A stretch of 64,000 nucleotides of DNA, taken from NCBI RefSeq assembly GCF_965216145.1, contig NZ_OZ244149.1:417011-481010 (forward strand), read 5' to 3'. Position numbers and translations under genes: made by a program. Positions 18,301 to 61,244 of this stretch are shown one piece after another (the first letter of the stretch is position 1; every line of letters starts with the position of its first letter). The notes below the pieces were generated by a model, which saw nothing but the letters and a program-made list of their open reading frames with translations, had not been told where the DNA came from and ran no database searches. The DNA is from Candidatus Palauibacter sp. Lineage in GTDB: Bacteria; Gemmatimonadota; Gemmatimonadetes; Palauibacterales; Palauibacteraceae.

Positions 18301-18589
18301 CCAAGTTCTCCCACGGCTCATCATCGAGGATGGCGCGGTCGAGCTCGTACTTCCAGAAGACTTCGAGTTCCTGCCCCTGCGCATCGTCATCCGCGCACGC
18401 CAGCCGGACCCGCGCGGACTCACTGGACTGTCGGCCCCCCGTCACCTCCTCCACCAGCCAGCGCCGTGTACGTACCCGCACCATCTCCCCCACCTCCGGA
18501 TCCCGGCTTGGCAAGCCACGGGAAAGCCGAGGGTCACCGTGGGCGTTAGCTGCGTCATGGGAACCGAGCGGTTCCAGGTCAGGCGTCAT
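15227..18589 (-). CDS. SF2 helicase, SNF2/DEAH-type (DISARM DrmD-like / BREX helicase-like), ~1120 aa
   Basis: Helicase motifs I LFIADDTGLGKT, II LLILDEAHH, III LFLSATPHNG, VI QRNGRIDRKLQ; long C-terminal coiled-coil region. Confidence 0.8.
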   Translation of the reverse strand: MTPDLEPLGSHDAANAHGDPRLSRGLPSRDPEVGEMVRVRTRRWLVEEVTGGRQSSESARVRLACADDDAQGQELEVFWKYELDRAILDDEPWENLAERGFDSPEYFAAFLNTLRWSCTTATDPSLFQAPFRAGITLDAYQMEPLRKALRLPRVNLFIADDTGLGKTIEAGLIARELLLRRKAKTIVVAAPPSVLEQWKAEMEERFGLVFQILDRHYVATMRRERGFGVNPWRTHSRFLVSHRLLADPAYADPMREWLGTMSPGSLLILDEAHHAAPSHGGRYGIESKFTRAIRDLCYRFEHRLFLSATPHNGHSNSFSTLLELLDPHRFTRGVTVRGKTDLDAVMIRRLKEDIREIQGGFPKRDVRPVVIDNLPEDAPELVLSRLLDEYRSVRDQRFAHATARGRAAAGLLVVGLQQRLLSSIEAFAISLARHRKTVKRQWEAGTGRNAGSDERHARGGAARRALAEDFLTTPGADDEILDGAEEAAEEAQIEAANREAESALKRDARIEDLWRKEQRLLDRMQEVADSARTHPDAKTRALLDWIRENLCPELPPFGMPAVGTPRWNERRVLIFTEHVEGTKRFLRDALSHAIAGTDRAEERIAVIEGATSGARRKEIQRRFNTPPSRDPLRILLATDAAREGLNFQAHCTDLFHFDLPWNPGRIEQRNGRIDRKLQPADEVRCHYFTLPQRHEDRVLEVLVRKTETIRRELGSLSKVIEEDIEKRLKQGIRRRDATGLAETLAGMDLEADRKRRVADEFESARERQSDLEDQIERCRNLLEKSREWVRFGPEAFRRALSCSLGLQNAAPLREARDENGRAVWSFPALDGRVAADPSWASTLDTLRAPMKRDQKIVEWRREAPVRPVVFEDPGELTDDVVHLHLEQRVAQRLLARFRAQGFVHHDLSRACLAQVADSIPRVVLLGRLSLYGRRAERLHEEIVTVTARWTDPERRQGPLERYRADAERKTLALLDRVLDSERVSQPSETVRERLLAAAPADIGDLRPQLEPRAEELAKKAAERLSERGEREAGELRETLTRQRDRVEKELQRHEKEPQLTLALDDEDRKQLRANIRSWRDRLKQFERDLRDEPARIEDFYRVRARRVEPVGLVYLWPETG

Positions 18590-18831
18590 GCGGAGCGTCC
18601 AAGGGCACGTACCGGGTCATTCCGGTTGGGCGACAGGATGACCGACACCTCAGCCCTCCGGCAAGCTCTCGCGCGTCCCTCCCGCCGTGCCCTCCCATGT
18701 TGCATACTCGCTCCTCGTAGCCAAGCACCCCGCCTCCGATGCAACCTTTCGGATGTCGCCCGGTTTTCCGCATGATCGTATCGTTCGACCGGCTCGACCT
18801 GTCACCGCGTGCGTCCGTCAAAACGCTTATC
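18590..18831. promoter_or_regulatory. Divergent intergenic region between the helicase operon (-) and the SIR2-like gene (+)
   Basis: About 240 nt non-coding spacer between divergent starts; appears to contain a short inverted repeat (GTTGCAT ... ATGCAAC). No promoter consensus confidently identified. Confidence 0.3.
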
Positions 18832-47308: not shown

Positions 47309-47893
47309 TCAGGCGTTCTGGTAGGTCTCGATTTCTTCGTTGCGGAGGGCACAGATGCGAAACGCGATGATGTCGACGAGGGCGTCGGTGACGTCCCGCT
47401 GGCGGTGGATCGTGGCCCGTTCGTGCTCCGACCGGGGCCGCGCCTCGCGAAGCTTCACGAGCCGCGTACCCAACCAGTCGAGGAAGTCGTGCGCCACGTC
47501 GCGGCGTTCACGGTCGCGATCCGGTTCCCCGTTCGGGGCCCTCGGAAGGAAGGCGTCGATCAGTGTGAGCAGTCCGGGAAAGACCATCTCGGTGAGTTCC
47601 TCGTCTCCGACGAGTTCCTCCTCGGTGATCTCCTCCCAACTCATCTCGTTCCAGTACAGTTCGCAGGCTTCTTCGAACAGATGCCGGCGCACCTCGGGGG
47701 GCGTTCTTCGCAGGACGAGGTCGCCCGGCCCGAGCCTTCGGCCGACGACTTTGCGAATCCCGCGGATGCGTTCCCGGACGAGGGTCCGGCCGGCCAGGGC
47801 GAGGGCGTCGTCCCCTGGATCCTCGGGCGAGGTTCGGGCTTGCGTTGCGTTGTTCACGGGGCCGAAGATGCGATGGCCACGGTGAAGGAACAA
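47309..47893 (-). CDS. Hypothetical protein
   Basis: ORF of 194 codons divergent from the ECF sigma gene; no motif recognised; start uncertain. Confidence 0.4.
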   Translation of the reverse strand: MFLHRGHRIFGPVNNATQARTSPEDPGDDALALAGRTLVRERIRGIRKVVGRRLGPGDLVLRRTPPEVRRHLFEEACELYWNEMSWEEITEEELVGDEELTEMVFPGLLTLIDAFLPRAPNGEPDRDRERRDVAHDFLDWLGTRLVKLREARPRSEHERATIHRQRDVTDALVDIIAFRICALRNEEIETYQNA

Positions 47894-47958
47894 GCACCGC
47901 GCCGGACGATGCGGGGGGCGGTTGCAACGGCCGGTATCGAGGGAGTGTTACCCAAGCG

Positions 47959-48612
47959 ATGGTGACGCCTTTGGCGGAGGACACGCGAACGCATACACAT
48001 CGACCGGCCGCCGGGACCCGCTCCGGCGCCGGGCCTGATGAGCAGACGGACCCCGGGGCGGACGAGCCCGGCCTCGTGGAGGCCGTGCAGGCGGGCGATG
48101 TGGAGGCGTTCTCGCGGTTCGTGACGCGGTATGCGGATCCGGCGTACGCCGTGGCGCTTTCGATCCTGCGTCAGGAACAGGACGCGGAAGACGCGGTGCA
48201 GGCCGCGTTCATCCGCGCGCTGGAGAGAATCGGGCAGTTGCGGCCGGGGAGTCGCTTCGGCCCGTGGTTTTATCGTGTGCTGCGGAGTACGTGTCTTAAT
48301 CTCCGGCGGCGCGAGATGCTGCGGACGCACTCGGAACTCACGGACACCGCGGCGTCGCGGGACGATCCGCACCGGGAGTTCGAACGAAGTCACGCCCGGG
48401 GCCGAGTGCTCGAGGCGCTGGAACGGCTTCCGGAGCGGCAGCGGACGGCGGTCATGATGTACGACCTGGAGGGATACGATCACGCCGAAATCGCCGGGAT
48501 CCTCGGGATCGCGGTGGGCACGTCGAGGGCGAACCTTCATCACGGGAGGCACGCGCTGCGCCGAGTTCTGGGCGAGAGTGCGTCTCCTACCGAAGGAGCA
48601 GAAGATGAGTAG
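47959..48612 (+). CDS. RNA polymerase sigma-70 factor, ECF subfamily
   Basis: Start at internal ATG (MVTPLAEDT...). Region 2 (VTRYADPAYAVALSILRQEQDAEDAVQAAFIRA) and region 4 (RQRTAVMMYDLEGYDHAEIAGILGIAVGTSRANLHHGRHALR). Confidence 0.75.
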   Translation: MVTPLAEDTRTHTHRPAAGTRSGAGPDEQTDPGADEPGLVEAVQAGDVEAFSRFVTRYADPAYAVALSILRQEQDAEDAVQAAFIRALERIGQLRPGSRFGPWFYRVLRSTCLNLRRREMLRTHSELTDTAASRDDPHREFERSHARGRVLEALERLPERQRTAVMMYDLEGYDHAEIAGILGIAVGTSRANLHHGRHALRRVLGESASPTEGAEDE

Positions 48613-49009: not shown

Positions 49010-49040
49010 CACGCTGAAACGCGATTACGGCCGGGTGCGT

Positions 49041-49502
49041 ATGGACACTTCAAGATTCCGGGCGATGCTGCTGCTGGGCGTCATCTTCGCGGCGGGCGCC
49101 GTGGTCGGCGTCGCGGTCGACCGGCTCGATCTCTTCACTGGCGGAGCCGCGGCCGATGAGCCGGCGGACACCGCCACTTCCGAGTCGGAGGAAAGTGACG
49201 GAGAGCGGCGCGGACGGCAGACGACGATCGAGGCCTTCGCGGACGAACTCGGCCTCACGGCCGATCAGCGGACGCAGATCGAGGCTTACCTGGACCATTT
49301 CCGGGGGGGTGCGAGGATGCTGCAGCAGGAGGTCCGCCCGCGGTACCGCGCACTCATGGATTCGGTCCGGACGGAGATCGAATCGGTGCTCACCGACGAG
49401 CAGGTCGAGGGGTACCGGGAACTGCTGAGGCAGCGCTACAGCGGTGGACGGGAGCGAGAGCCCGGTCGGTCGGGCAACGAGAACCCGGAGTCGGACAGCT
49501 GA
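49041..49502 (+). CDS. Periplasmic LTXXQ-motif protein (Spy/CpxP-like)
   Basis: Signal-like N-terminus plus two LTXXQ-type motifs (LTADQRTQIEAY, LTDEQVEGYREL). Confidence 0.5.
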   Translation: MDTSRFRAMLLLGVIFAAGAVVGVAVDRLDLFTGGAAADEPADTATSESEESDGERRGRQTTIEAFADELGLTADQRTQIEAYLDHFRGGARMLQQEVRPRYRALMDSVRTEIESVLTDEQVEGYRELLRQRYSGGREREPGRSGNENPESDS

Positions 49503-49551
49503 GAGACGGCTGACACTGCGAAAAACCAGCCCCTCCGGGGGCGAGGAAACG

Positions 49552-50910
49552 ATGATCACTCTACATAGATCGGGACCCGAAGGCCGGCGCTGCGCCGGTC
49601 TTCGTCGATGGGGGTTCGCCCTGCTGCCGGGGATTCTGTTCGCCTCGGCCATGCCAACCGGGACGGCCGTCGCGCAGGTACAGGCGACCGACGACGTCCG
49701 CGCGATCACGGTCGACGAGGCCGTGGAGATCGCACTCCGCCGCAACCCCACGCTGCTTCAGGCCTACTCGTCGATCGAGATGGCGGAGCACAACCGGCTG
49801 AGCGCCTTTGGTTCGTTGCTGCCGTCGCTCAACATGAGCTTCGGCTATCAGAATTCGTCCACGGGCCGCCTCGATCCGCTCGGCGAGGGGATCGTGGCGA
49901 CGAGCTACTCCACGCGGCTCAACGCCTCCTACAACCTGTTCAACGGCTGGAGCCGCTTCACGGACCTCAAGGGCGCGCGGCTCGGCGTCGTCGAGCAGAA
50001 CGCCCGCTACCGCGAGGTCGAGTTTCAGGTCATCCAGCAGGTGAAGCAGGAGTACGCGGCGACCGTGGCCGCGCGTGAACTCGTCGCGGTCGAGGAACGC
50101 CGCGTCCAGCGGGCGGCCGACCAGCTCGAATTCGTGCGGCAGCAGCTGGAACTGGGGCGGGCGACGCGCTCGGACTCCCTTCGCTCTCAGGTTGATCTCA
50201 ACAACGCGCGACTCGCGCTCCTCAACGCGGAGAACGACGTGCGCACGACGATCTTCCGGCTCGCGGCAGTCGTGGGGTCGGAGACGCTGATCGGACCGAC
50301 CGCCGAGGCGGAACTCGCCGGGACGCCGATCCCCTACACCCGCGACGAGCTGTTCGCGATGGCGGATGTGACGGCGCCCGCCCTGCAGGCCGCCTCCGCG
50401 GCCGTCGAGGCCGCCGAGGCGTCGGTATCAAGCGCGCGCTCCAGCTACCTGCCCTCGATCAACGTCGGCGGCGGCTGGGGCTGGTCGAACCAGGAGTTCC
50501 CCCCGAGCAATCGCTCGTGGCAGTTCTCGTTGAGCGGCTCCTACCCGCTCTTCAACGGCTTCCAGCGCGAGACCCAGGTGTTCCGGGCCCGGTCGCAGGC
50601 GGACCAGGCCCAACAGTCGGAGCGGGCGGCCCGGCTCAACCTGAGTTCGCAACTCGACGCGGCGTACGCGACATCCCAGTCCGCCCTCGCGGGCGTGGAC
50701 CTCGCGGCACAGAACGTCGAACTCAGCGAGGAGAGCCTGCGGGTGGTCCAGGAACGGTACCGGCTCGGTCTCGCCACCATCCTCGAACTGCAGGACGCGC
50801 AGATCACGCTCACGCAGGCGGAGGTCGACCTCGTCACGCGGCGCTTCGAGTATGAGGTCGCGGTCTCGGCGATCGAAGCCCTTCTCGGCCGGAGACTCGA
50901 CCAGCCGTAA
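49552..50910 (+). CDS. TolC-family outer-membrane efflux protein
   Basis: Start at internal ATG (MITLHRSGPEGRR...). Signal peptide and two repeated helical/beta halves with typical TolC patterns (SYLPSINVGGGWGW ... LFNGFQRE). Confidence 0.7.
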   Translation: MITLHRSGPEGRRCAGLRRWGFALLPGILFASAMPTGTAVAQVQATDDVRAITVDEAVEIALRRNPTLLQAYSSIEMAEHNRLSAFGSLLPSLNMSFGYQNSSTGRLDPLGEGIVATSYSTRLNASYNLFNGWSRFTDLKGARLGVVEQNARYREVEFQVIQQVKQEYAATVAARELVAVEERRVQRAADQLEFVRQQLELGRATRSDSLRSQVDLNNARLALLNAENDVRTTIFRLAAVVGSETLIGPTAEAELAGTPIPYTRDELFAMADVTAPALQAASAAVEAAEASVSSARSSYLPSINVGGGWGWSNQEFPPSNRSWQFSLSGSYPLFNGFQRETQVFRARSQADQAQQSERAARLNLSSQLDAAYATSQSALAGVDLAAQNVELSEESLRVVQERYRLGLATILELQDAQITLTQAEVDLVTRRFEYEVAVSAIEALLGRRLDQP

Positions 50911-51050: not shown

Positions 51051-52523
51051 ATGTCCATGACGCAACGCTGCTCCCGGCGCTCCGCGCCCCTTGCCGCGGT
51101 CTTCGGCGCCCTGGCCGTCGTGGCCTCGGGTTGCGCGATCGGCGAGGCCAACGAGCCTGAGCAGACCCTCCAGGCGCTGAGCGCGTCCCGCCAGACGATC
51201 ATCTCGAGCGTCGAGGCGACGGGCACGATCGAGCCGATCCGCGTGATCGAGGTCAAGTCGCAGGCGGGTGGCGAGGTGCTCGAACTTCCCGTCGAACTTG
51301 GTGACAACGTCGAGCAGGGAACGCTCCTCGTGCGGATCGATCCACGCGACGTGAACAACGCGTTCGCCCAGGCGGAAGCGGACCTCGACGTGGCTCTGGC
51401 GCAGAACGAGGTCGCGCAGCTGCAGCTGGAACGCATCACCACGCTGCACGATTCGGACATCGTCACGGCGGAGGAACTCGAGAACGCGACGCTCTCGGCG
51501 GCCACCGCGAGAGCCTCGCTCGTGCGCGCCCGGACGAACCTCGAGCTCGCGGAGGACAAGCTCGACGACGTCACGCTGCGGGCACCGATCACCGGGACGA
51601 TCGTGGAACGGACGCTCGAAGAGGGTCAGGTCGTCACGGGGACGCGTGATCTGACGGGTGGCACGGTGCTCATGCGCATGGCCGACCTCAACGAGGTGCA
51701 GGTGCGCACGCTCGTGGATGAGACGGACATCGGGCGCCTCGAGCGGGGGCTCCCGGCCAACATCACGGTCGAAGCCTACCCCAACCGGACGTTCCGGGGA
51801 TCGGTCCTAAAGATCGAACCGCAAGCCGTCGTCGAGCAGAACGTGACCATGTTCGCGGTGTTGACGCGGATCTCGAACGATGAGGATCTGCTGCGGCCGG
51901 GGATGAACGCGGATGTCGAGGTCGTGATCGGGCGCCAGGAAGGCGTGCTGGCCGTCGCGAACAGCGGGATCAAGTCCCAGCAGGAGGCCGCCCAGATTGT
52001 CCGCGCCCTCGAGATCGACGCCGATGTGAACGCCCTCATCACCGATCTCCGCGAGCAGAATCGGCCGCCGGAGCCCCTGGAGACGGCGGACGGAACGACG
52101 GCCGAGGCGGACGGCGAGGCCGAGGAGGAACCCGAGATCGGCGGCGTGCCGATGTCCGAGTTCCAGTCGATGTCGCAGCAGGAGCGGATGCGGGTGATCC
52201 AGAACCTGTCCGCGGAAGACCGCGGCCGCCTGATGCAGCAGTTCCGCGGCGGCGGGCCCGGTGGGGCCGGCGGCGGGGCCGGCGACCCCCGGCGACGGCC
52301 GGATGAGCCGCGGCCCGCGTTCGTGTTCAAGTACGACGAGATGGGCGCCCTCACCGTCAAGGCCGTCATGATCGGGCTCAGCGACTTCGACCACACACAG
52401 ATCGTGCAGGGACTCGAGGAGGGCGAGGAGATCGTGGCGGTTCCCCTCTCCCTCATCCAGCAGCAGGAGTTCCTGAATCGGATCCGCAGCAGGTCGGCGC
52501 TGCCGGGCGTCGGCGGAAGGTGA
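51051..52523 (+). CDS. Efflux transporter periplasmic adaptor subunit (HlyD/MFP family)
   Basis: Lipoprotein-like N-terminus, ATGTIEPIRVIEVKSQAGGEV (barrel-sandwich hybrid), coiled-coil hairpin, RAPITGTIVER. Confidence 0.75.
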   Translation: MSMTQRCSRRSAPLAAVFGALAVVASGCAIGEANEPEQTLQALSASRQTIISSVEATGTIEPIRVIEVKSQAGGEVLELPVELGDNVEQGTLLVRIDPRDVNNAFAQAEADLDVALAQNEVAQLQLERITTLHDSDIVTAEELENATLSAATARASLVRARTNLELAEDKLDDVTLRAPITGTIVERTLEEGQVVTGTRDLTGGTVLMRMADLNEVQVRTLVDETDIGRLERGLPANITVEAYPNRTFRGSVLKIEPQAVVEQNVTMFAVLTRISNDEDLLRPGMNADVEVVIGRQEGVLAVANSGIKSQQEAAQIVRALEIDADVNALITDLREQNRPPEPLETADGTTAEADGEAEEEPEIGGVPMSEFQSMSQQERMRVIQNLSAEDRGRLMQQFRGGGPGGAGGGAGDPRRRPDEPRPAFVFKYDEMGALTVKAVMIGLSDFDHTQIVQGLEEGEEIVAVPLSLIQQQEFLNRIRSRSALPGVGGR

Positions 52524-52533
52524 CGAGGACCGC

Positions 52534-53745
52534 ATGATCTTCTTCGAGGTGCTTCGCGTGGCCATGGACGCGATCCGGGCCAACAAGCTGCGCTCGTTCC
52601 TGACGATGCTCGGGATCGTCATCGGCGTGGGGGCCGTCATCACGATGGTGGCGCTCGGCGAGGGCGCACAGCGTCAGGTCGAGCAGCAGATCGCCTCCCT
52701 GGGGACGAACGTGCTCACGGTTCGCGCCGGACAGGGGATGTTCCGCGGCGTACGGGGCGGCTCGAGTTCGCGCCTCACGGCCGACGACGTGGAAGCGGTG
52801 CGAAACGGGGCCCCCGCGCTGGTCCAGATCGCGCCCGAGATGCAGGGGCAGTTGCAGGTTCAGTACGGACGCAACAACGCGAACGTCCGCATCCTCGGCA
52901 CGACGCCGAACTATGCCGAAGTCGGCAACTATACGGTCGCCCTGGGCAGGTTCTTCGACGAATCGGAGAACCAGGGACGGCGGAGGGTCGCGGTGCTCGG
53001 GGGGGCGGTTCCGACAGTCCTGGGCACGGACCCGGCCGAACTCGTCGGCCGCTCGATCTCGATCCGGAACATCAGGTTCGAGGTCGTGGGCGTTCTGGAG
53101 GAGAAGGGCGGGCAGAGCTGGTTCAACGAAGACGAGCAGATCTTCGTCCCGCTCCAGACGGCGCAGTTCCGGCTCCTCGGGACGGACCGGGTGAACCAGT
53201 TCAAGGTCGTCGTCGAGAGCGAGGCCGCGATTCCCATCGCGATGGTGCAGATCGAGGACGTGCTCCGGCGAGAGCACCGTCTGCCCCTCGGGCGGGCGAA
53301 CGATTTCTTCATCTCCGACAGCGCGCAGTTTCTCCAGGCGGCGGAGGAAACGACCCAGACCTTCACCATGCTGCTGGCGGGCATCGCCGCCGTCAGTCTT
53401 CTCGTCGGCGGGATCGGCATCATGAACATCATGCTGGTGTCGGTCACCGAGCGGACGAAGGAGATCGGCGTCCGCAAGGCGCTCGGCGCCACGCGGAGCG
53501 CGGTCATGCTCCAGTTCCTGTTCGAAGCCACCACGCTCTGCGTGACGGGCGGGATCCTGGGCGTCGGCTTCGCGTACGGCGCGGCGGAGATCCTCTCGCG
53601 CTCGGCCGGCTGGACGATGGCGATCGCTCCGGAGGCGATCGGGCTTGCGGTGGTGTTCGCGGCCGTGGTCGGCGTGTTCTTCGGCATCTGGCCGGCTCGC
53701 CGCGCCGCGCGGCTCGATCCGATCGTGGCGCTGCGGTACGAATAG
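52534..53745 (+). CDS. ABC transporter permease (MacB-like periplasmic domain + FtsX)
   Basis: N-terminal transmembrane helix, periplasmic core, C-terminal FtsX four-helix region (GIGIMNIMLVSVTERTKEIGVRKALGA). No ATPase gene adjacent. Confidence 0.8.
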   Translation: MIFFEVLRVAMDAIRANKLRSFLTMLGIVIGVGAVITMVALGEGAQRQVEQQIASLGTNVLTVRAGQGMFRGVRGGSSSRLTADDVEAVRNGAPALVQIAPEMQGQLQVQYGRNNANVRILGTTPNYAEVGNYTVALGRFFDESENQGRRRVAVLGGAVPTVLGTDPAELVGRSISIRNIRFEVVGVLEEKGGQSWFNEDEQIFVPLQTAQFRLLGTDRVNQFKVVVESEAAIPIAMVQIEDVLRREHRLPLGRANDFFISDSAQFLQAAEETTQTFTMLLAGIAAVSLLVGGIGIMNIMLVSVTERTKEIGVRKALGATRSAVMLQFLFEATTLCVTGGILGVGFAYGAAEILSRSAGWTMAIAPEAIGLAVVFAAVVGVFFGIWPARRAARLDPIVALRYE

Positions 53746-53896
53746 CCCGCTTCCCGCGCCGCTTCTTCCGGCCACCTCTCCCCGCGGCGGGATTGGCGGT
53801 ACGTCGCGGGCGGACGTATGGTCCCGGCGTGAGCCCTGACACCCGCGCGGGCCTTGCCCCGGGGTGTTTATTCAACCCGGTCCCGGACGCAATCGA

Positions 53897-54406
53897 ATGA
53901 GCGTTCCGCTGAGAGAACTGCCCGACACCGCCCGTCTCTGGATCTACGGGACGGACCGTCCGCTGTCGGACGGGGAGCGCGAGGCGCTCGTGGGCGACCT
54001 GCGCGCGTTCGTCGACGTGTGGACGGCCCACGGGGCGGCGCTCCGCGCCGGCGTGGAGTGGGTCGAGGGGCGCTTCGCGGTCATCGCCGTGGACGAGGCT
54101 TCGGCGCCGGCCTCGGGGTGCTCGATCGATGCCATGGTGCGGCGGCTCGCCGCGCTCGAGGCGCGGCTCGCCTGCTCGCTGCTCGACGGCACGCGCGTGT
54201 TTTATCGCGGCGAGTCCGGCGAGATCGTGGGGTGCGCCCGGGCCGCGTTCCGGGCCCGGGCGGCGGCCGGCCAGGTCGACGATTCGACCGCGGTCTTCGA
54301 TCCCACCATCGAGACGCTCGCGGAACTGCGTGCGGGCGACCTGGAGCGGCCGGCCTCCCGCTCCTGGCATCGACGGCTCGTGGACCGGCCGGACGGACGG
54401 TCCTGA
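53897..54406 (+). CDS. Hypothetical protein
   Basis: Start at internal ATG (MSVPLRELPD...); clean ORF directly upstream of the patatin-like gene; no family recognised. Confidence 0.45.
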   Translation: MSVPLRELPDTARLWIYGTDRPLSDGEREALVGDLRAFVDVWTAHGAALRAGVEWVEGRFAVIAVDEASAPASGCSIDAMVRRLAALEARLACSLLDGTRVFYRGESGEIVGCARAAFRARAAAGQVDDSTAVFDPTIETLAELRAGDLERPASRSWHRRLVDRPDGRS

Positions 54407-54419
54407 TCCGGGGACCGGT

Positions 54420-55580
54420 GTGACGGGAGGTCCGGGGGGGAGCGCACCGGGCTCGGCGGAGGGGAAGCTGGCCTTCGCCCTCTCCGGGGGAGGTGCCCGG
54501 GCCGCCTACCAGACCGGAGTCCTGTGCCACATCGGCGAGCGGCTGCCCAGGCTGCAGATCCCCCTTCTCACCGGCGTCTCGGCGGGCGCGATCAACGTCG
54601 GGTTCCTCGCCTCCTATCGTGGCGACTTCCGGCAGGCGACGCGGGCCTTGAAGCGGCGCTGGCTGTCGCTGACGACCGAGGAAGTGCTGCGGACGAACCC
54701 GACTTCGCTCCTGAAGGTGGGGATCCGGCTCGGCGGTTCGCTTCTCGGGGGCGGGATCGGACTGAGTCCGCAGTTTCGGAGCCTCGTGGACACCGCGCCG
54801 CTGCGTGAGTTCATCGAGCGCAACCTCGTCGTCGGGGCCATCGGGGAGCGGATAGCGGCGGGCTACGTCGAGGCGATCGGTCTCACGGCGATGTCCTACC
54901 AGACGGGGCGTACCGTGCTCTTCCTCCAGGGGGAATCGAGCGCGCGGCCGTGGCCCGCCACCGCGCGCAACCGGCTCGTGCGGACCGACATCTCGGTCGA
55001 CCACATCCTCGCCTCCGCGTCGATCCCGCTCGTGTTCCCAGCCGTCAAACTGGGGCAGCAGTACTACGGGGACGGCAGCTTTCGCACCGCGGCGCCGCTG
55101 GCGCCCGCCATCCACATGGGCGCGGATCGCATCTTCACGATTTCGGCGCGTTATCGGCGCTCGGAACTGGAGACGAGGCGACCGGACATGGCCGGCTACC
55201 CGCCCCCGGCGCGCGTGCTCGGCCTGCTTCTCAACTCGGTCTTTCTCGACACACTCGACTGGGACGCGGCGGCGTTACGCAGAATCAATCATCTCATCGA
55301 CAGCCTTCCGCCCGAAGTGGCGGAGGAGCAGGGTCTGCGCCACGTCGACCTGCTCATCCTCAGACCCTCCCGCGACATCGGGAGACTCGCACGCCAGTTC
55401 GAGATCGAACTGCCCCCGGCGCTGAGGTTCCTGGTGCGCGGCCTCGGAACGCCACGGGCGAAGAACGCGGATTTCCTCAGCTATCTCCTGTTCGAGAGCG
55501 AATACGTCCGAGCGCTCGTCGAACTCGGGGAAGCCGACGCGGAATCGAACTGGGACCGCATCGAGTCGTTCCTCACCTGA
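54420..55580 (+). CDS. Patatin-like phospholipase
   Basis: LSGGGARAAYQTG (oxyanion Gly-rich), GVSAGA (GxSxG serine), YYGDGS (catalytic Asp of the DG dyad). Start is a GTG by residue arithmetic, 14 nt after the upstream stop. Confidence 0.7.
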   Translation: MTGGPGGSAPGSAEGKLAFALSGGGARAAYQTGVLCHIGERLPRLQIPLLTGVSAGAINVGFLASYRGDFRQATRALKRRWLSLTTEEVLRTNPTSLLKVGIRLGGSLLGGGIGLSPQFRSLVDTAPLREFIERNLVVGAIGERIAAGYVEAIGLTAMSYQTGRTVLFLQGESSARPWPATARNRLVRTDISVDHILASASIPLVFPAVKLGQQYYGDGSFRTAAPLAPAIHMGADRIFTISARYRRSELETRRPDMAGYPPPARVLGLLLNSVFLDTLDWDAAALRRINHLIDSLPPEVAEEQGLRHVDLLILRPSRDIGRLARQFEIELPPALRFLVRGLGTPRAKNADFLSYLLFESEYVRALVELGEADAESNWDRIESFLT

Positions 55581-55588
55581 CCGTGCAC

Positions 55589-56698
55589 GTGAAGATCGTC
55601 CATTTCGCCGACCTTCACCTTGACTCTCCCTTCGCCTGGTGCGAGGCGAGCGGGGACGTGGCCCGTCGGCGGCGCGAGGCGCTGCGCGAGACGCTCCTCG
55701 CGATCACGGCTCTTGCGAGGGATACAGATGCCGACGCGCTCCTCTGCGGCGGCGATCTGTACGAACACGACCGCGTGACGCTGGACACGGAGAAGTTCCT
55801 CCGGCAGACGTTCGCCGGTCTCGACCCGATGCCCGTCTACATCGCTCCGGGCAATCACGACTGGTACGGGCCGACGAGCCTCTATGCGACGGAGGAGTGG
55901 AGCAGCAACGTCCACATCTTTCGCGAAGCGGTTCTGCGCCCCGTCCCGGTCGCACCCGGGATCACGCTCTGGGGCGGCGCGCACTGCGCCCCCGCGAATA
56001 CGGACAACTTTCTCGGCGGCGGCTTCCGGGTGGAGGGGCCGGGCGTCCATCTCGCGCTCTTCCACGGCGCGGAACAGTCGTGGCTCGCCGCGCAGGGAGA
56101 GGGGAAGGTGCCGCACGCCCCCTTCGACACGGCGGACATCCGGACGGCGGGCCTCGACCACGCGTTCCTCGGCCACTATCACCGGCCCGCGGACGGCGCA
56201 CACCACACCTATCCGGGCAATCCCGATCCCCTGCAGTTCGGAGAGGACGGGGAGCGCGGGGCCGTCGTGGCGACGTTCACGGCGGAGGGCGCGGTGGAGT
56301 GCGAACGTCGTGTCGTCGCGATGACGCACGTCCACGACCTCGCACTCGACGTCACGGAGTTCACGAGCCGACAGCAGATTCGAGACACCCTGCGCGAGGT
56401 CGCCGCGGGCCGGGGCGGTCTCGCGCGCCTTACGGTGACCGGGGACCTCGAACCCTCGCTCGATCTTCAGGAGGAAACGATCCGGGAACAGTTGCTCGAG
56501 ACCTTCGAGGCCGTCCAGATCCGAAAATCGGGTCTGCACCTGGCGTACGACCTGGATCAGATCCGCGAGGAACCCACCGTGCGGGGCCAGTTCGTGAGAG
56601 ATGTGATCGGGGCGGATCTGCCGGAGGACGAACGACGCCGCGTGTTGAGGATGGGACTCCGAGCCCTCGACGGGCGGGACGATCTGGAGGTGCTCTGA
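55589..56698 (+). CDS. Metallophosphoesterase, SbcD/Mre11-like nuclease subunit
   Basis: KIVHFADLHLD, GGDLYEH, IAPGNHD, FHGA, GHYHR are calcineurin-like phosphoesterase motifs. GTG start just after the patatin stop. Confidence 0.7.
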   Translation: MKIVHFADLHLDSPFAWCEASGDVARRRREALRETLLAITALARDTDADALLCGGDLYEHDRVTLDTEKFLRQTFAGLDPMPVYIAPGNHDWYGPTSLYATEEWSSNVHIFREAVLRPVPVAPGITLWGGAHCAPANTDNFLGGGFRVEGPGVHLALFHGAEQSWLAAQGEGKVPHAPFDTADIRTAGLDHAFLGHYHRPADGAHHTYPGNPDPLQFGEDGERGAVVATFTAEGAVECERRVVAMTHVHDLALDVTEFTSRQQIRDTLREVAAGRGGLARLTVTGDLEPSLDLQEETIREQLLETFEAVQIRKSGLHLAYDLDQIREEPTVRGQFVRDVIGADLPEDERRRVLRMGLRALDGRDDLEVL

Positions 56699-56701
56699 GC
56701 C

Positions 56702-59587
56702 GTGCGTTTCGAGTCTGTCGTAGCGTACGCCTTCGGCCCCCTGCGGGACGAGAGCCTCGAGTTCGCGCCGGGCATGAACGTCGTCTACGGTCCCAACGAG
56801 GCGGGGAAATCCTCCTGGCACGCCGCGGTCTACGCCGGCCTGTGCGGGATGCGGAGGCGGCGGGGAATGCCGCGCAGGGACGAGAAGGTCTTCGCGGAAC
56901 GGCACAGGCCCTGGGGGGGCGACGGATGGGAGGTGGGGGCCGTCATCGCGCTGGAGGACGGACGGCGCGTCGAGTTGCGGCATGATCTCGCGGGCAGGGT
57001 CGACAGCAGCGCGCGGGATGCGAGCGTCGCGGGCCGCGACTACTCGAGCGAGATCATCCACGAGGGCGCGCCCGATGGCTCGCGCTGGCTGGGACTCAAC
57101 CGCCGCTCGTTCCTTCACACGGCCTGTGTACGGCAGGCGGACATCCTCAGGGTGCGGGACGACCCCCTGTCCCTTCAGGAGGACATGCAGCGCGCCGCTG
57201 CCACGGCCGGGGCGGATGCGACGGCCGCCGCGGCGCTTCAGCGGCTCGATGACTACCTGAGGGACCGGGTCGGCTCGACACGGGCGCCGACGAAGCCGCT
57301 GGTGAGGACCGAACGGGAAACCGACGACGCGCGCGCGGCGCTCGAGACCGCGCAGGAGGCCCATCGCGACTACCTGCGGCGGCGTGTGCAGGTGGAGGAT
57401 CAGGAGCAAGCGGCCAGGGAGGCGGAACTGCGGGTCGAGGCCATGCACGCCGCGCTCGCCGATGCTGAAGCGAACGCGCTCGCCGAACGGCTGGGAGACG
57501 CGCGAGCGCTCGATGAACAGTTTCCGGAGGGCGTGCCTCACCCGCTGCCCGATGGCGGCGTACTGCACAGGAGAGTCATCGAAACGCTGACGACGTGGAG
57601 TAACCGGCCGGTATTGCAGGAGCTGGCGGGGCCCTCGGCGCAGGAACTGGCGGAGAGGATCAACCGGGCCCACCGCGGGCTCCTCGCGGCACGCGCCGCG
57701 GTGGCGGAAGCCGGGGCGCTCGACATCGAGCGCCGCGTCGCGCGGGCACATGAGCTGGGGGCTCTCTTCCCGGCGGGCGCTCCGCGCACCTCCGCCGCCG
57801 AGGAAGCGCACGCGAGCCTGGTTCGGGACGCGCTCAACGCCTGGGAGTCGCTACCATCCCTCCGGGAGCCGGACGGGCCGGACGTCGAGCAACTCGAATT
57901 CAGCCTGGCTGATTTCGACAAGAAGCGTCGGGGGGGCGGCGGCGCATCGGGGGCGCGACGATCCGGATCACATCTCCTCGCCTGCGGTGTCGCTGCAGTG
58001 GTGGGGATCGTCGCGGCCCTGCTGCTGCCCGATTTGCGGGTCGTGGGTCTGACCCTGGCCGCCACCGGGGCCGCGGCGTTCCTCTGGCTCCGGTTCGTGG
58101 ACTCGCGGCCCGGCGGGGCGGACATCGCTCTCGTGCTCGAGACGCAACGCGACGCCATGGCGCGCAGTCTCGCGGTGCGCCGCACCGAACAGGCTGGCTA
58201 CGAAGCCGCACTCGAGCGCAGAGCCGCGCTGATCGAGCAACTGGTCGACAACGGCGCGCTCGACAACGGCGCGGGATCGGAGCCGGAGACGGTCGTCCGA
58301 AGGCTGCGCGAGTGGGAGGCGTCGTGGCGCGATGAGAAGCTGGCGCGTGCCCAGTTGGGCCTCGAGTGGGACGAGCTTCAGGGACTGCTGGGCGGGTCGT
58401 CGCTGGAGGAACTCGTCGCGGAGGCCGGTCGACTCCGGGAAGAAGCCGATGGCCTCAGCGCATCCGCGGACGAATCCCGGCTGGACGAACCGCGGGCACG
58501 AAGCGTATCCGCGCGTGAACTCGCCGAGATGGAGCAGCACGTCGACGACGAACTCCGCGGGTGGCAGGAAGAACGAGCCGAACGCCTCGCGGCGGAAGCC
58601 CGGCACCGCCTGGACACCGAGCGGGTCGCCGCCGCCACGGAGACGCTGCGAGCGACCGCCGCGCGGATCGGCGTGACGGGCGACGACCCGGAAGAGCTGG
58701 CCGACGCGCTCGAGGTGTGGCGGGCAGGCCGGGAACGAGCCCTGGGGGAAGCCGGACGGCGCAGTGAATCGTGGGACCGGCTACAGCAGCTGCTCGGCGA
58801 CCGAACGCTGGATGAGTTCGCCGCGGAGGCGGAGCGGCTCCGCGCCCGCGCGGACCGGCTGGCGCACGAGGTGGGGCCGCGCGCGCTTGCCATGGCCCGC
58901 GAAAGCGGGCCCACGGCCGAGAGACTGGAAGCTCTTCGTTCGACAGCGGAGGCCGCGCGCTCGGAGGTGGACAGAGCGCACGGCCAGCTCACGGAACGCG
59001 AGCAGAACCTCCCCCGCGTGGCGGACGCCGAAGACGCTCTGGCTGCGGTCGAGCGCGAACAGGCCCGCGTTGGGCGACTCAAGCGCACACTGGACAGCAC
59101 GATCGCCTTCCTGCGGGAGGCGGAGGAACGCGTCCTCCGTGACATCGCGCCGATCCTCACGAGCACGATCCTCGAATGGCTTCCCGGGGTGACGGAAGGA
59201 CGCTATACGGGCTGTCGCATCGACCCCGAGTCCCTGCTCGTGGAGGTCCGCACGAACCGGGGACGCTGGCGTGCCGCCGAGCTGCTGTCGCACGGGACGG
59301 CCGAGCAGATCTATCTGCTCCTCAGGTTCGCACTCTCCCGCCATCTCACCGGGACGGGCGAGACCTGTCCTCTGATCCTCGACGATGTCGTGGGCGCGTC
59401 GGACGCGGAACGCAAGGAGGCGATGCTCCGGACGCTGCGCGCGGTCGGGGAATCGACCCAGGTCATCCTCTTCACCCATGAGGACGATGTCCGGGACTGG
59501 GCCAGGCGGAACCTCCACGCCCCGCGCAACCGTCTAATCGAACTCGCGGGACCCCGGCCGCACGCCGAGGAGCGGCCGGCTACCTGA
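56702..59587 (+). CDS. SbcC/Rad50-like (YhaN-like) AAA ATPase with long coiled coil
   Basis: N-terminal Walker A (VVYGPNEAGKSS), C-terminal AEQIYLLLRFAL (signature-like), LILDDV (Walker B), FTHE (H-loop). Central hydrophobic hairpin is unusual for SbcC. Confidence 0.7.
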   Translation: MRFESVVAYAFGPLRDESLEFAPGMNVVYGPNEAGKSSWHAAVYAGLCGMRRRRGMPRRDEKVFAERHRPWGGDGWEVGAVIALEDGRRVELRHDLAGRVDSSARDASVAGRDYSSEIIHEGAPDGSRWLGLNRRSFLHTACVRQADILRVRDDPLSLQEDMQRAAATAGADATAAAALQRLDDYLRDRVGSTRAPTKPLVRTERETDDARAALETAQEAHRDYLRRRVQVEDQEQAAREAELRVEAMHAALADAEANALAERLGDARALDEQFPEGVPHPLPDGGVLHRRVIETLTTWSNRPVLQELAGPSAQELAERINRAHRGLLAARAAVAEAGALDIERRVARAHELGALFPAGAPRTSAAEEAHASLVRDALNAWESLPSLREPDGPDVEQLEFSLADFDKKRRGGGGASGARRSGSHLLACGVAAVVGIVAALLLPDLRVVGLTLAATGAAAFLWLRFVDSRPGGADIALVLETQRDAMARSLAVRRTEQAGYEAALERRAALIEQLVDNGALDNGAGSEPETVVRRLREWEASWRDEKLARAQLGLEWDELQGLLGGSSLEELVAEAGRLREEADGLSASADESRLDEPRARSVSARELAEMEQHVDDELRGWQEERAERLAAEARHRLDTERVAAATETLRATAARIGVTGDDPEELADALEVWRAGRERALGEAGRRSESWDRLQQLLGDRTLDEFAAEAERLRARADRLAHEVGPRALAMARESGPTAERLEALRSTAEAARSEVDRAHGQLTEREQNLPRVADAEDALAAVEREQARVGRLKRTLDSTIAFLREAEERVLRDIAPILTSTILEWLPGVTEGRYTGCRIDPESLLVEVRTNRGRWRAAELLSHGTAEQIYLLLRFALSRHLTGTGETCPLILDDVVGASDAERKEAMLRTLRAVGESTQVILFTHEDDVRDWARRNLHAPRNRLIELAGPRPHAEERPAT

Positions 59588-60581
59588 ACGCCTTCGAGCT
59601 CGTGGAGTGGCCCGGGTCCACCTTCGCACTCGGGTCCATGTAGTGCACCGCGTTGTTGACGGCGATGGCGGCCTCGCCGAAGCCGGTGGAGATGAGTTCC
59701 AGCTTGCCCTCGTAGGTGGCGATGTCTCCCGCCGCGTACACCCCCGGGATGTTCGTCCGCATGCGCGAGTCGACCAGGATCGCATTCTTTTGGAGTTCGA
59801 GTCCCCATTCGGCGATCGGACCGATGTTGGGGACGAACCCGATGAGGGCGATGATCTCGTCCACTTCGAGCCGGACCGTTTCCTTCGTCTTCGTGTGCTG
59901 GAGCGTCGCGGCCTCGACCCGGTCGCTCCCGTGGATCTCCGTCACGGTGTGGAAGGTCCGGAGCTCCAACTCGCCCCTCTCGTGCGCCCCCTCGACCTGC
60001 GCCACCGTACGCTCGTGCGCGCGATACCGGTCCGAGCGGTGAATGTGGGTCAGCTCGCCGGCGATCTCGCGCAGCGCCCAACTCCAGTCGAAGGCGGAAT
60101 CGCCCCCACCCACGAGGAGGACCCTCTTCCCGCGGCATGATTCGGGGTCCTTCACATGGGCGGTCAGCCCCCGCTTCCAGAACTCGTCCCAGCCCGGCAC
60201 GGCCAGGGTCCGGCTCCTGAAGGCGCCCTTCCCCCCGGCGATGACGACGGTCCGCGTTGGACGCGGTCCTTCATCCGTGCGAAGGTCGAACGATTCGTTT
60301 CCGGGATTCAGGGCGAGCACGCGTTCTTCGAGGCAGACTTCCGCGTTGAACTGCATCGCCTGCGTCACGAGATCCCGCGCCAGATCCTTGGCCAGGATCC
60401 GTGGGAACCCGGCCACGTCAAAGACGTTCTTCTCGGGATAGAGAGCGGTCAACTGACCGCCGAGTTCGGGCAGAACGTCGATGATACGGGCCGACACACC
60501 CCGCATTCCGGCGTAGAACAACCCGTAGAGACCGGTCGGGCCCCCTCCGATGATTGTGATATCGACCGTTTCGTTGCGCAC
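59580..60581 (-). CDS. FAD-dependent ferredoxin-NADP+ reductase type 2 / thioredoxin-reductase-like oxidoreductase
   Basis: ITIIGGGPTGLY (FAD), VLLVGGGDSAFDW (NAD(P)H), GVYAAGDIAT. Confidence 0.75.
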   Translation of the reverse strand: MRNETVDITIIGGGPTGLYGLFYAGMRGVSARIIDVLPELGGQLTALYPEKNVFDVAGFPRILAKDLARDLVTQAMQFNAEVCLEERVLALNPGNESFDLRTDEGPRPTRTVVIAGGKGAFRSRTLAVPGWDEFWKRGLTAHVKDPESCRGKRVLLVGGGDSAFDWSWALREIAGELTHIHRSDRYRAHERTVAQVEGAHERGELELRTFHTVTEIHGSDRVEAATLQHTKTKETVRLEVDEIIALIGFVPNIGPIAEWGLELQKNAILVDSRMRTNIPGVYAAGDIATYEGKLELISTGFGEAAIAVNNAVHYMDPSAKVDPGHSTSSKAFR

Positions 60582-60611
60582 GCCGTCGTTGTCCCCGCCA
60601 TCCGGAACCGG

Positions 60612-61244
60612 TCACGCCACGCTATTCCATTTGCGGCGCAGACAGTGCGTCCCGTAATCGATGATCGCCCACACGGAGGTGACCCCGACGAGGAGCACGA
60701 GTGCCGGAACATATCGGGGGTCGAAGATCAGAGCGAGAAGCGTAAGGAACTGCAGTCCCGTGGCGATCTTGCCCGGCCAGCGTGGTCTGAAGGGGATGAT
60801 GAGAGACACCAGGCGAGCGAGAAAGTATGACCCGGCAGTGTACAGGTCCCTCAGGATCAGGATGAGGAATGACGCCCCGTCGAGTCCGCCCGAGGCGAGG
60901 AAACCCGCAAGCGCGAGGAGGACGAACAGCTTGTCGCAGAGCGGATCGAGCAGGAGTCCGATCTGCGAGCGGGTCCCGCTGACGCGGGCGATGAACCCAT
61001 CCAGGACATCGGTCGCGCCGGCCGTGCCCACGAGCACGGCCATGAGCCCGGGGTCCGTCACCACGGTGAACGCGAGTCCGAGCGGAATGCGACTCAGCGA
61101 CATGAGATTGGAGAGGGTCAGGAACCCCGGGTCGTGCGTCTGTATCGGAATCCTCCGCTTCCTGGTCTCCAAGCCTTCCGGGTCACCGGGAAGATGCACG
61201 TTGCGGGGGCGCGTCTCCAGTGCTCGCGCAACTCTACCCACCAC
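60612..61244 (-). CDS. CDP-alcohol phosphatidyltransferase family protein (PgsA-like)
   Basis: DVLDGFIARVSGTRSQIGLLLDPLCDK matches the D-G-x2-A-R-x8-G-x3-D-x3-D motif; multiple transmembrane helices. N-terminus probably shorter than the ORF. Confidence 0.7.
   Translation of the reverse strand: MVGRVARALETRPRNVHLPGDPEGLETRKRRIPIQTHDPGFLTLSNLMSLSRIPLGLAFTVVTDPGLMAVLVGTAGATDVLDGFIARVSGTRSQIGLLLDPLCDKLFVLLALAGFLASGGLDGASFLILILRDLYTAGSYFLARLVSLIIPFRPRWPGKIATGLQFLTLLALIFDPRYVPALVLLVGVTSVWAIIDYGTHCLRRKWNSVA

Follow-up and report, generated by a model that had tools for sequence, protein, structure and literature searches.

The locus described here lies at positions 53897-59587 of a 64,000-nucleotide (nt) stretch of contig NZ_OZ244149.1 from Candidatus Palauibacter sp. 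(Gemmatimonadota), the whole of which is called the window. Four genes on its forward strand encode a hypothetical protein of 169 amino acids (aa), a patatin-like lipase, a metallophosphoesterase nuclease and an SMC-like ATPase. A preliminary description of the window had proposed that the lipase was coupled to the ATPase and nuclease in a manner reminiscent of the defence system Lamassu. The analysis favoured another explanation: the lipase and the nuclease/ATPase pair, which is of the SbcEF kind, are probably two independent modules that adjoin only in the Palauibacter lineage, and not a lipase-armed defence system.

Gene organization of the locus

The four genes and the convergent gene that follows them were located by direct reading of the sequence, as listed below.

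53897 (ATG) to 54406 (TGA), forward strand: 169-aa hypothetical gene
54420 (GTG) to 55580 (TGA), forward strand: patatin-like gene, 386 aa (PF01734)
55583 or 55589 (in-frame GTG) to 56698 (TGA), forward strand: metallophosphoesterase nuclease gene, 369-371 aa (PF00149)
56702 (GTG) to 59587, forward strand: SMC-like ATPase gene, 961 aa (AAA_27/SMC_N/AAA_23)
59580 to 60581, reverse strand: convergent gene for a ferredoxin-NADP-reductase/thioredoxin-reductase-like flavoprotein (Pyr_redox_2, E=2e-34)

The four genes and their spacing agreed with the preliminary description. The hypothetical and patatin genes were separated by 13 nt, the patatin and nuclease genes by 2 nt (GTG 55583) or 8 nt (GTG 55589), and the nuclease and ATPase genes by 3 nt. 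The GTG at 55583, located 2 nt past the patatin stop, was kept in most relatives, and the 3′ end of the ATPase gene overlapped the stop of the convergent reductase gene by 8 nt. This layout was matched almost to the nucleotide in 20 other Palauibacter-clade loci with the co-directional arrangement (L006, L007, L009-L023, L026, L033, and L040), in which the patatin-nuclease junction was mostly TGA, 2 nt, GTG and the 8-nt overlap of the ATPase and reductase stops was found in 15 of the 20. The junction of 2-8 nt was kept in all 20 related loci, which bore out the operon-like packing described earlier and made co-transcription of the four genes in Palauibacter plausible. The layout of the clade was stable, yet it descends from one arrangement event and is a single evolutionary observation. 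In five of the loci (L014, L021-L023, and L033), neither of the conserved nuclease GTG codons was present, yet the coding sequence of the N-terminal “IVHFADLH” was intact, suggesting that translation starts at a non-canonical codon or is tightly coupled to that of the patatin gene.

A consensus scan of positions 52400-60800 found no sigma-70-like promoter. Three terminator-like sites were found in the same interval, which equalled the shuffled expectation and made the scan uninformative on operon structure. The MacB permease and 169-aa genes are 151 nt apart, and between them, at 53851-53865, a short GC hairpin is followed by GTTTATT; this is a possible weak terminator, although the scan as a whole was not above that expectation.

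The nuclease and the ATPase resemble SbcF and SbcE

The conserved motifs of the nuclease were found at the following positions.

55610 to 55624, forward strand: phosphoesterase motif DLHLD
55751 to 55765, forward strand: phosphoesterase motif GDLYE
55850 to 55861, forward strand: phosphoesterase motif GNHD
56060 to 56068, forward strand: phosphoesterase motif FHG
56171 to 56182, forward strand: phosphoesterase motif GHYH

These are all five of the Mre11/SbcD phosphoesterase motifs. The protein matched PF00149 (Metallophos) with 54.2 bits (E=3e-14), and its best sequence matches in the PDB were Thermotoga Mre11/SbcD (E about 1e-6). Against the curated sbcD model TIGR00619, it scored 38.7 bits, below the cut-off of 77.65.

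The features of the ATPase were as follows.

56789 to 56812, forward strand: Walker A, GPNEAGKS
57962 to 58102, forward strand: central hydrophobic helical hairpin, aa 421-467, containing “LLLPD”
59288 to 59308, forward strand: ABC signature, SHGTAEQ
59372 to 59386, forward strand: Walker B, LILDD
59471 to 59479, forward strand: H-loop, FTH

The ATPase matched AAA_27 (PF13514) with 40.6 bits against a cut-off of 22, and SMC_N and AAA_23 matched as well. Its best sequence match in the PDB was Rad50, but the score against the Rad50 model NF003034 (46.1 bits) was far under the cut-off of 700. The CxxC zinc hook was absent throughout the 961-aa protein and from the homologues checked, and the central hydrophobic segment recurred in most of these homologues. 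The secondary structure of the AlphaFold2 (AF2) model, which had a mean predicted local distance difference test score (pLDDT) of 74.9, comprised an N-terminal head (1-190), helices (199-411), the hairpin (421-441 and 443-467), further helices (472-830), and a C-terminal head (835-937). In this model the hydrophobic hairpin took the position of the zinc hook at the apex of the coiled coil, and the hydrophobic character of the apex suggests membrane association. The arms themselves contained repeated modules. In the C-terminal arm, a “WDxLQxLLG...EA.RLR” module occurred twice, 135 aa apart (58366-58437 and 58771-58842; a 72-nt repeat, 71% identical), and in the N-terminal arm two “FPxGxP...W” modules were located at aa ~270-305 and ~352-385. 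These modules hold residues that are invariant across phyla, and the duplicated modules may represent paired interruptions of the coiled coil.

In Bacillus subtilis, SbcE (YhaN) is an SMC-like protein without CxxC whose central domain is unique, being hydrophobic in its first half and containing a conserved proline; the SbcD-like yhaO gene, encoding SbcF, lies directly upstream of yhaN (PMC2811018). The family has been studied by experiment only in B. subtilis, where genetics placed SbcEF in double-strand-break repair and competence (PMC2811018). A Bacillus locus (L092) with a trio of nuclease, AAA_27 ATPase, and YhaM-like HD/OB protein aligned to both window proteins. The nucleases were 29% identical over 271 aa (E=2e-29), and the N-terminal and C-terminal heads of the ATPases aligned with E=2e-8 and 2e-11, respectively, at 23-36% identity, so the similarity was weak but specific. 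The record of this locus (NZ_CP093325.1) is listed in PLSDB as “Bacillus sp. N5-665 plasmid p1” but, at 5.5 Mb, is evidently chromosomal.

Owing to the AAA_27 match above cut-off, the lack of CxxC, the central hydrophobic hairpin with its proline, the nuclease gene directly upstream, and the similarity to Bacillus, the window pair was assigned, as judged from its sequence, to the SbcF/SbcE (YhaO/YhaN) type. It is not a canonical SbcCD because it has no zinc hook and scores well below the curated SbcD and Rad50 cut-offs. The gene identities proposed in the preliminary description were thus upheld by Pfam for the patatin, the SbcD-like metallophosphoesterase, and the SbcC/SMC-like ATPase, but the designation of the pair needed correction from SbcCD to SbcF/SbcE.

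The patatin-like lipase and its 169-aa partner

The catalytic motifs of the patatin-like protein were all present.

54486 to 54503, forward strand: oxyanion loop, GGGARA
54573 to 54587, forward strand: nucleophile elbow, GVSAG (Ser54)
55071 to 55079, forward strand: catalytic aspartate, DGS (Asp218)

The match to PF01734 covered aa 20-231 and was above the cut-off (83.8 bits against 27.7, E=2e-23), and no NCBIfam model matched. The protein is predicted to be an RssA/NTE-type phospholipase with every catalytic motif intact. Its orthologues in Gemmatimonadota were 48-97% identical and were named “patatin-like phospholipase family protein” or “NTE family protein” (JGI) in the databases.

The 169-aa protein encoded directly upstream belongs to a widespread, uncharacterised family of ~165 aa and had no Pfam, NCBIfam, or PADLOC match. 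The homologues are labelled “ABC transporter ATPase” by NCBI, a name that looks like a misnomer because the protein has no Walker A/P-loop. Residues H45, C75 (in SGCSID), D78, and W157-H158 were invariant. The AF2 model (pLDDT 92.6) showed a ferredoxin-like α/β fold, and its structural comparison with the PDB gave no informative match. A profile search with the family retrieved 2970 cluster representatives, which were mostly stand-alone proteins, with rare fusions to rhodanese (P0334) and DUF2911 (P0274).

The constant partners of the patatin gene

The two genes are preceded in the window by a cluster of genes on the same strand, assigned by Pfam.

47845 to 48612, forward strand: extracytoplasmic function (ECF) sigma factor
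49035 to 49502, forward strand: LTXXQ-like protein
49444 to 50910, forward strand: outer-membrane efflux protein
51051 to 52523, forward strand: HlyD-type membrane-fusion protein
52534 to 53745, forward strand: MacB/FtsX-type permease, 403 aa

The permease had no fused ATPase domain, and the cluster contained no ABC ATPase gene. Downstream of the nuclease/ATPase pair, the reductase gene was followed by a MlaD-domain gene and rho. The genomic contexts of patatin orthologues were fetched at falling identity and compared with this arrangement. The order of the upstream cluster was the same in L001-L008, L090, L091, and L173-L175, and the 169-aa gene and the patatin gene trailed the MacB cluster in every Gemmatimonadota locus carrying that cluster. 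The permease-hypothetical gap was only 3-5 nt in L091 and L175; in L091 it was 3 nt, and the hypothetical and patatin genes overlapped there by 4 nt. One relative with 48% patatin identity (L089) lacked both the 169-aa partner and the MacB cluster, was probably a paralogue, and was excluded.

The other side of the patatin gene was variable. In six Gemmatimonadota lineages (L001, L003, L005, L091, L173, and L175; patatin 56-76% identical), a metallophosphoesterase and ATPase pair was located on the opposite strand, convergent with the patatin gene and 10-39 nt downstream of a reductase gene with the same direction as the pair. In L008 and L174 the slot was empty and the patatin gene faced the reductase gene directly. 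In L090, four genes of sugar-utilisation type lay between the patatin gene and a pair 5.8 kb away. The reductase gene, which was 73-91% identical in all relatives, formed the right boundary of this variable slot. Across these loci the flanking genes were 56-91% identical (patatin 56-88%, reductase 73-91%, and MacB permease 74-90%). The genes that stay with the patatin gene are the 169-aa gene and those of the MacB-type efflux cluster, and not those of the nuclease/ATPase pair.

Two non-orthologous types of nuclease/ATPase pair

The pair of the window was designated type A and the opposite-strand pair of the other Gemmatimonadota type B. The window nuclease was 80-84% identical to its counterparts within the clade and 49-66% identical to those of other phyla, but only 27-29% identical to type B. 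The window ATPase had 60-66% identity to its counterparts in the clade, whereas its similarity to type B could barely be detected; the alignment of the type A and type B ATPases (961 aa and 712-843 aa, respectively) was confined to short head segments. The results showed that the two types are not orthologous. Both belong to the SbcEF kind because the type B ATPases also have a central hydrophobic segment and no CxxC. The type B nucleases were 49-67% identical to each other, tracking the divergence of their hosts, which suggests that type B was vertically inherited in Gemmatimonadota.

These values bear on the simplest account of the window layout, a local inversion by which the resident Gemmatimonadota pair would have left the reductase operon and come to lie on the strand of the patatin gene. 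The occurrence of a metallophosphoesterase and AAA ATPase pair on the opposite strand of the same slot in relatives would agree with an inversion. However, the nucleases differ far more between the two types than within the clade, while the genes on both sides of the slot have kept 56-91% identity; the ATPases differ in length and align in their heads only; and pairs in other phyla resemble type A far more than type B does. A simple inversion was ruled out on the non-orthology of the pairs and has next to no probability.

Type A pairs were then viewed from their own side, by a genome scan with the type A ATPase alignment. The scan returned 80 loci, of which 19 were from the Palauibacter clade and 61 from other organisms, and in each of the 80 the ATPase gene was immediately preceded by the nuclease gene. 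The 19 Palauibacter-clade loci showed the layout of the window. The 61 loci outside Gemmatimonadota came from Chloroflexota (Dehalococcoidia, Tepidiformaceae, Caldilineaceae, and Chloroflexia), Acidobacteriota (Vicinamibacterales and Bryobacteraceae), Gammaproteobacteria (Pseudomonadales and Azotimanducaceae), and Actinomycetota. When searched with a profile hidden Markov model of 120 patatin orthologues (E<=0.01), none of these 61 loci had a patatin open reading frame within ±10 kb, and no member of the 169-aa family was found in the same range. Two distant type B pairs (L097 and L099), obtained in a metagenome scan with type B nucleases that gave few relatives with enough flank, also had no patatin and no member of the 169-aa family.

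The neighbour families of type A pairs were shared only within lineages, and those matched by Pfam were metabolic or transport families. The neighbours in the 61 loci included a glucose/sorbosone dehydrogenase, an M28 peptidase, a CoA-transferase, an ABC transporter, and a lipase-maturation-factor-like protein, and no defence or mobility genes were found among the type A neighbours in other phyla. The gene directly 5′ of the type A nuclease in Pseudomonadales (L064, 7049-8827, and related loci) encoded a DCC1-like and lipase-maturation-factor (LMF1) protein; this was the only other lipid-related neighbour seen and is probably a coincidence. The type A ATPases fell into length classes of ~600, ~720, and ~950 aa, with ~1440 aa in L054 (L054-L088 compared with L024-L041). 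Their heads were similar, which suggests that the length of the coiled-coil arm differs between lineages.

The locus as a candidate defence system

PADLOC identified no defence system at the locus. The LmuB model PDLC03859 matched only the C-terminal head of the ATPase (46 bits, E=1e-12), with N-terminal P-loop matches at E about 1e-5, and mad3 gave 63 bits with partial head similarity; judged from these alignments, both matches appear to be at the level of generic ABC-head similarity. The PADLOC model for the phospholipase effector of CBASS (cyclic-oligonucleotide-based antiphage signaling system) scored 14.5 bits against the patatin (E=0.004), and no CD-NTase cyclase was found among the identified neighbours. 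Lamassu consists of the SMC-like LmuB, usually the small subunit LmuC, and LmuA, a fusion of a conserved domain with an effector that varies and can be a lipase; the system evolved from SbcCD (PMC12663957). The conserved domain of LmuA docks on LmuB/LmuC. In the window, Pfam found no LmuA-type domain in the patatin and PADLOC gave no LmuA match. No LmuC was found; the position between the lipase and ATPase genes is occupied by that of the metallophosphoesterase, whose active site is intact. No defence system that combines a patatin with an SMC-like protein was found in the literature searched.

The analogy with Lamassu was reasonable in concept, given the SbcCD ancestry of that system and its lipase effectors, but its defining features were not present at the locus. 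In its fullest form, the analogy would make the four genes one unit in Palauibacter, in which a membrane-anchored Rad50-like sensor/nuclease recognizes DNA that is foreign or damaged and controls a membrane-damaging patatin, following the abortive-infection logic of Lamassu-Lipase or CBASS-CapV. The junction kept throughout the clade, the intact Ser-Asp dyad of the patatin, a hydrophobic hairpin that could place the ATPase at the membrane, and the precedent of a system derived from SbcCD with lipase effectors (PMC12663957) would all suit this reading. Nevertheless, it is very improbable. The link arose once and was missing in 61 of 61 homologous pairs elsewhere, and the same patatin orthologue persisted unchanged with a different, opposite-strand pair or with none. 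Neither the LmuA-type domain nor LmuC was present, the nuclease has kept its full active site as repair enzymes do, and no defence genes were close by. The proposed functional coupling of the lipase to the ATPase and nuclease was thus not borne out from either side, in view of the pairs without a patatin and the varying neighbours of the patatin. Homologous pairs lacking a patatin neighbour, which the preliminary description had named as evidence that would refute its reading, are what the 61 loci outside Gemmatimonadota show. A related possibility, that capture behind the patatin gene made a new unit in which a membrane DNA-end sensor gates a phospholipase, would yield a Lamassu-like defence from an intact SbcEF and a housekeeping patatin with no LmuA/LmuC adaptor; we consider it very improbable.

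The nearest restriction-modification-like genes were ~35 kb from the patatin/pair locus, in a patch of lower GC content (0.59-0.61) at 11304-18616 on the reverse strand. This patch encodes a fused restriction-modification enzyme of MmeI/Eco57I type (1399 aa) as well as an SNF2/ResIII helicase (1129 aa) and is a real defence-like island.

It was also considered whether the type A pair alone, independent of the patatin, is a horizontally mobile immune module directed against foreign DNA in marine and sponge-associated bacteria. In a neighbour-joining tree of the nucleases, which was unsupported, Palauibacter was placed inside a mixed-phylum type A crown separated by a long branch from type B. 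This mixing of phyla, together with the 49-66% identity across them, speaks for mobility, as does the polymorphism of presence, absence, and replacement at the slot in Gemmatimonadota. One complete Tepidiformaceae chromosome (OZ253575.1) carried two type A pairs, L031 and L032, ~0.8 Mb apart, which would also suit a mobile module. Weak PADLOC similarity to SMC-like defence ATPases and the evolution of SMC-like immunity from SbcCD (PMC12663957) point in the same direction. However, the neighbourhoods in other phyla were lineage-stable and held metabolic genes; defence islands, integrases, and transposases were absent from them, and the PADLOC matches were partial and generic. When plasmid and phage collections were searched with the nuclease, no close relatives were found: the matches had at most 30% identity and came from large secondary replicons, from chromosomes carrying a wrong label, or from fragments without annotation. 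In addition, the only family member studied by experiment, that of Bacillus, is a protein of break repair and competence (PMC2811018). An immune role of the type A pair is therefore unlikely.

A proposed remodelled slot between two conserved genes

The explanation favoured here, two independent modules brought side by side in one lineage, accounts for both sides of the synteny. The first module would consist of the 169-aa ferredoxin-fold protein and the RssA/NTE-type patatin, the conserved tail of the ECF-sigma/MacB-type cluster, and most likely acts on envelope lipids. The second, of SbcF/SbcE type, would consist of an Mre11-like Mn-phosphoesterase and a Rad50-like ABC ATPase; by analogy with the SbcEF of Bacillus, its substrates are probably DNA ends and double-strand breaks, and it is perhaps tethered to the membrane. 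The patatin and reductase genes converge, and the space between their 3′ ends would be a permissive slot that was repeatedly remodelled, holding type B, nothing, extra genes, or type A. In most Gemmatimonadota, a vertically inherited type B would occupy the slot and be transcribed behind the reductase gene. We infer that in the ancestor of Palauibacter this type B was replaced by a horizontally acquired type A, inserted in the opposite orientation and abutting the patatin stop; the closest relatives of this type A are found in Chloroflexota, Acidobacteriota, and Gammaproteobacteria. A promoterless cassette in such a slot would be read through from its co-directional neighbour, which would explain the closeness of type A to the patatin gene and of type B to the reductase gene with no function in common. 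A short gap is not diagnostic at this locus because type B lies equally close (10-39 nt) to the reductase gene. Type A is thus probably expressed by read-through from the patatin transcript, which would be hitch-hiking of expression and not functional coupling.

Several points weigh against this explanation. The co-directional, near-zero-gap junction was retained although the ATPases of the clade have diverged to 57-60% identity, which is compatible with selection for co-expression. The presence of two different Rad50/Mre11-like pairs beside the same patatin could reflect selection for adjacency and not a permissive site. The type A pair showed no anomaly in GC or GC3, and no convincing boundary repeats, mobile-element scars, or mobility genes were found around 55581/59590. 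The horizontal origin would follow from the levels of identity and the unsupported neighbour-joining tree, and the roles of SbcEF-type pairs outside Bacillus from analogy with Bacillus.

As a candidate defence system, the locus can be set aside. Tight spacing alone was misleading. In compact genomes, a two-gene cassette placed between convergent genes becomes “operonic” with whichever neighbour is co-directional. The locus would be a clear case of the in-place replacement of an SbcEF-type pair by a distant homologue. Pairs of the SbcE/SbcF type, with a hydrophobic hairpin in place of the Rad50 zinc hook, are widespread beyond Gram-positive bacteria, and the type A form was common to at least four phyla at high identity in the loci retrieved from metagenome-assembled genomes, several of them of sponge or coral symbionts. 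The locus also draws attention to a conserved and uncharacterised gene pair, encoding a small protein of ferredoxin fold and a patatin lipase, that follows an efflux cluster of ECF-sigma/MacB type.

Comparison with known systems

Like Lamassu, the window encodes an ATPase of SbcC ancestry beside a lipid hydrolase, and the C-terminal head of the ATPase partially matches a PADLOC model of LmuB. It differs from Lamassu in that its patatin carries no LmuA-type domain, LmuC is missing, and an Mre11-type nuclease with intact motifs is present. Moreover, its lipase-ATPase link is not co-inherited, being missing from all homologous pairs outside one genus. With the CapV patatin effectors of CBASS, the lipase of the window shares the patatin fold, the oxyanion loop, the GxSxG serine, and the DG aspartate. 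However, no CD-NTase or other signalling gene is adjacent, and its orthologues are chromosomal, conserved, and located downstream of an efflux cluster.

The patatin is closest in kind to the bacterial patatin-like phospholipases of the RssA/NTE family, with which it agrees in domain content, size (~380 aa), and motifs. It differs from them in its partners, a ferredoxin-fold protein of 169 aa and a cluster of MacB type. This conserved pairing appears to be specific to Gemmatimonadota, and no description of it was found in the literature searched.

The nuclease and the ATPase share with SbcCD and Mre11-Rad50 the organization as a two-gene module of nuclease and ABC ATPase, the five Mre11 motifs, and the Walker A, signature, Walker B, and H-loop motifs, but differ in the hydrophobic apex that stands where the zinc hook would be and in their NCBIfam scores below cut-off. 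The comparison with SbcE/SbcF of B. subtilis shows differences of host and context: the window pair comes from a Gemmatimonadota host of Gram-negative type, has only 23-36% (heads) and 29% (nuclease) identity to the Bacillus locus, and is appended to a patatin gene with no yhaM exoribonuclease gene downstream. In architecture the two agree, with an SbcD-like gene directly 5′ of the gene for an SMC-like ATPase of ~960 aa, an AAA_27 head, no CxxC, and a hydrophobic central domain with a conserved proline between the helical arms.

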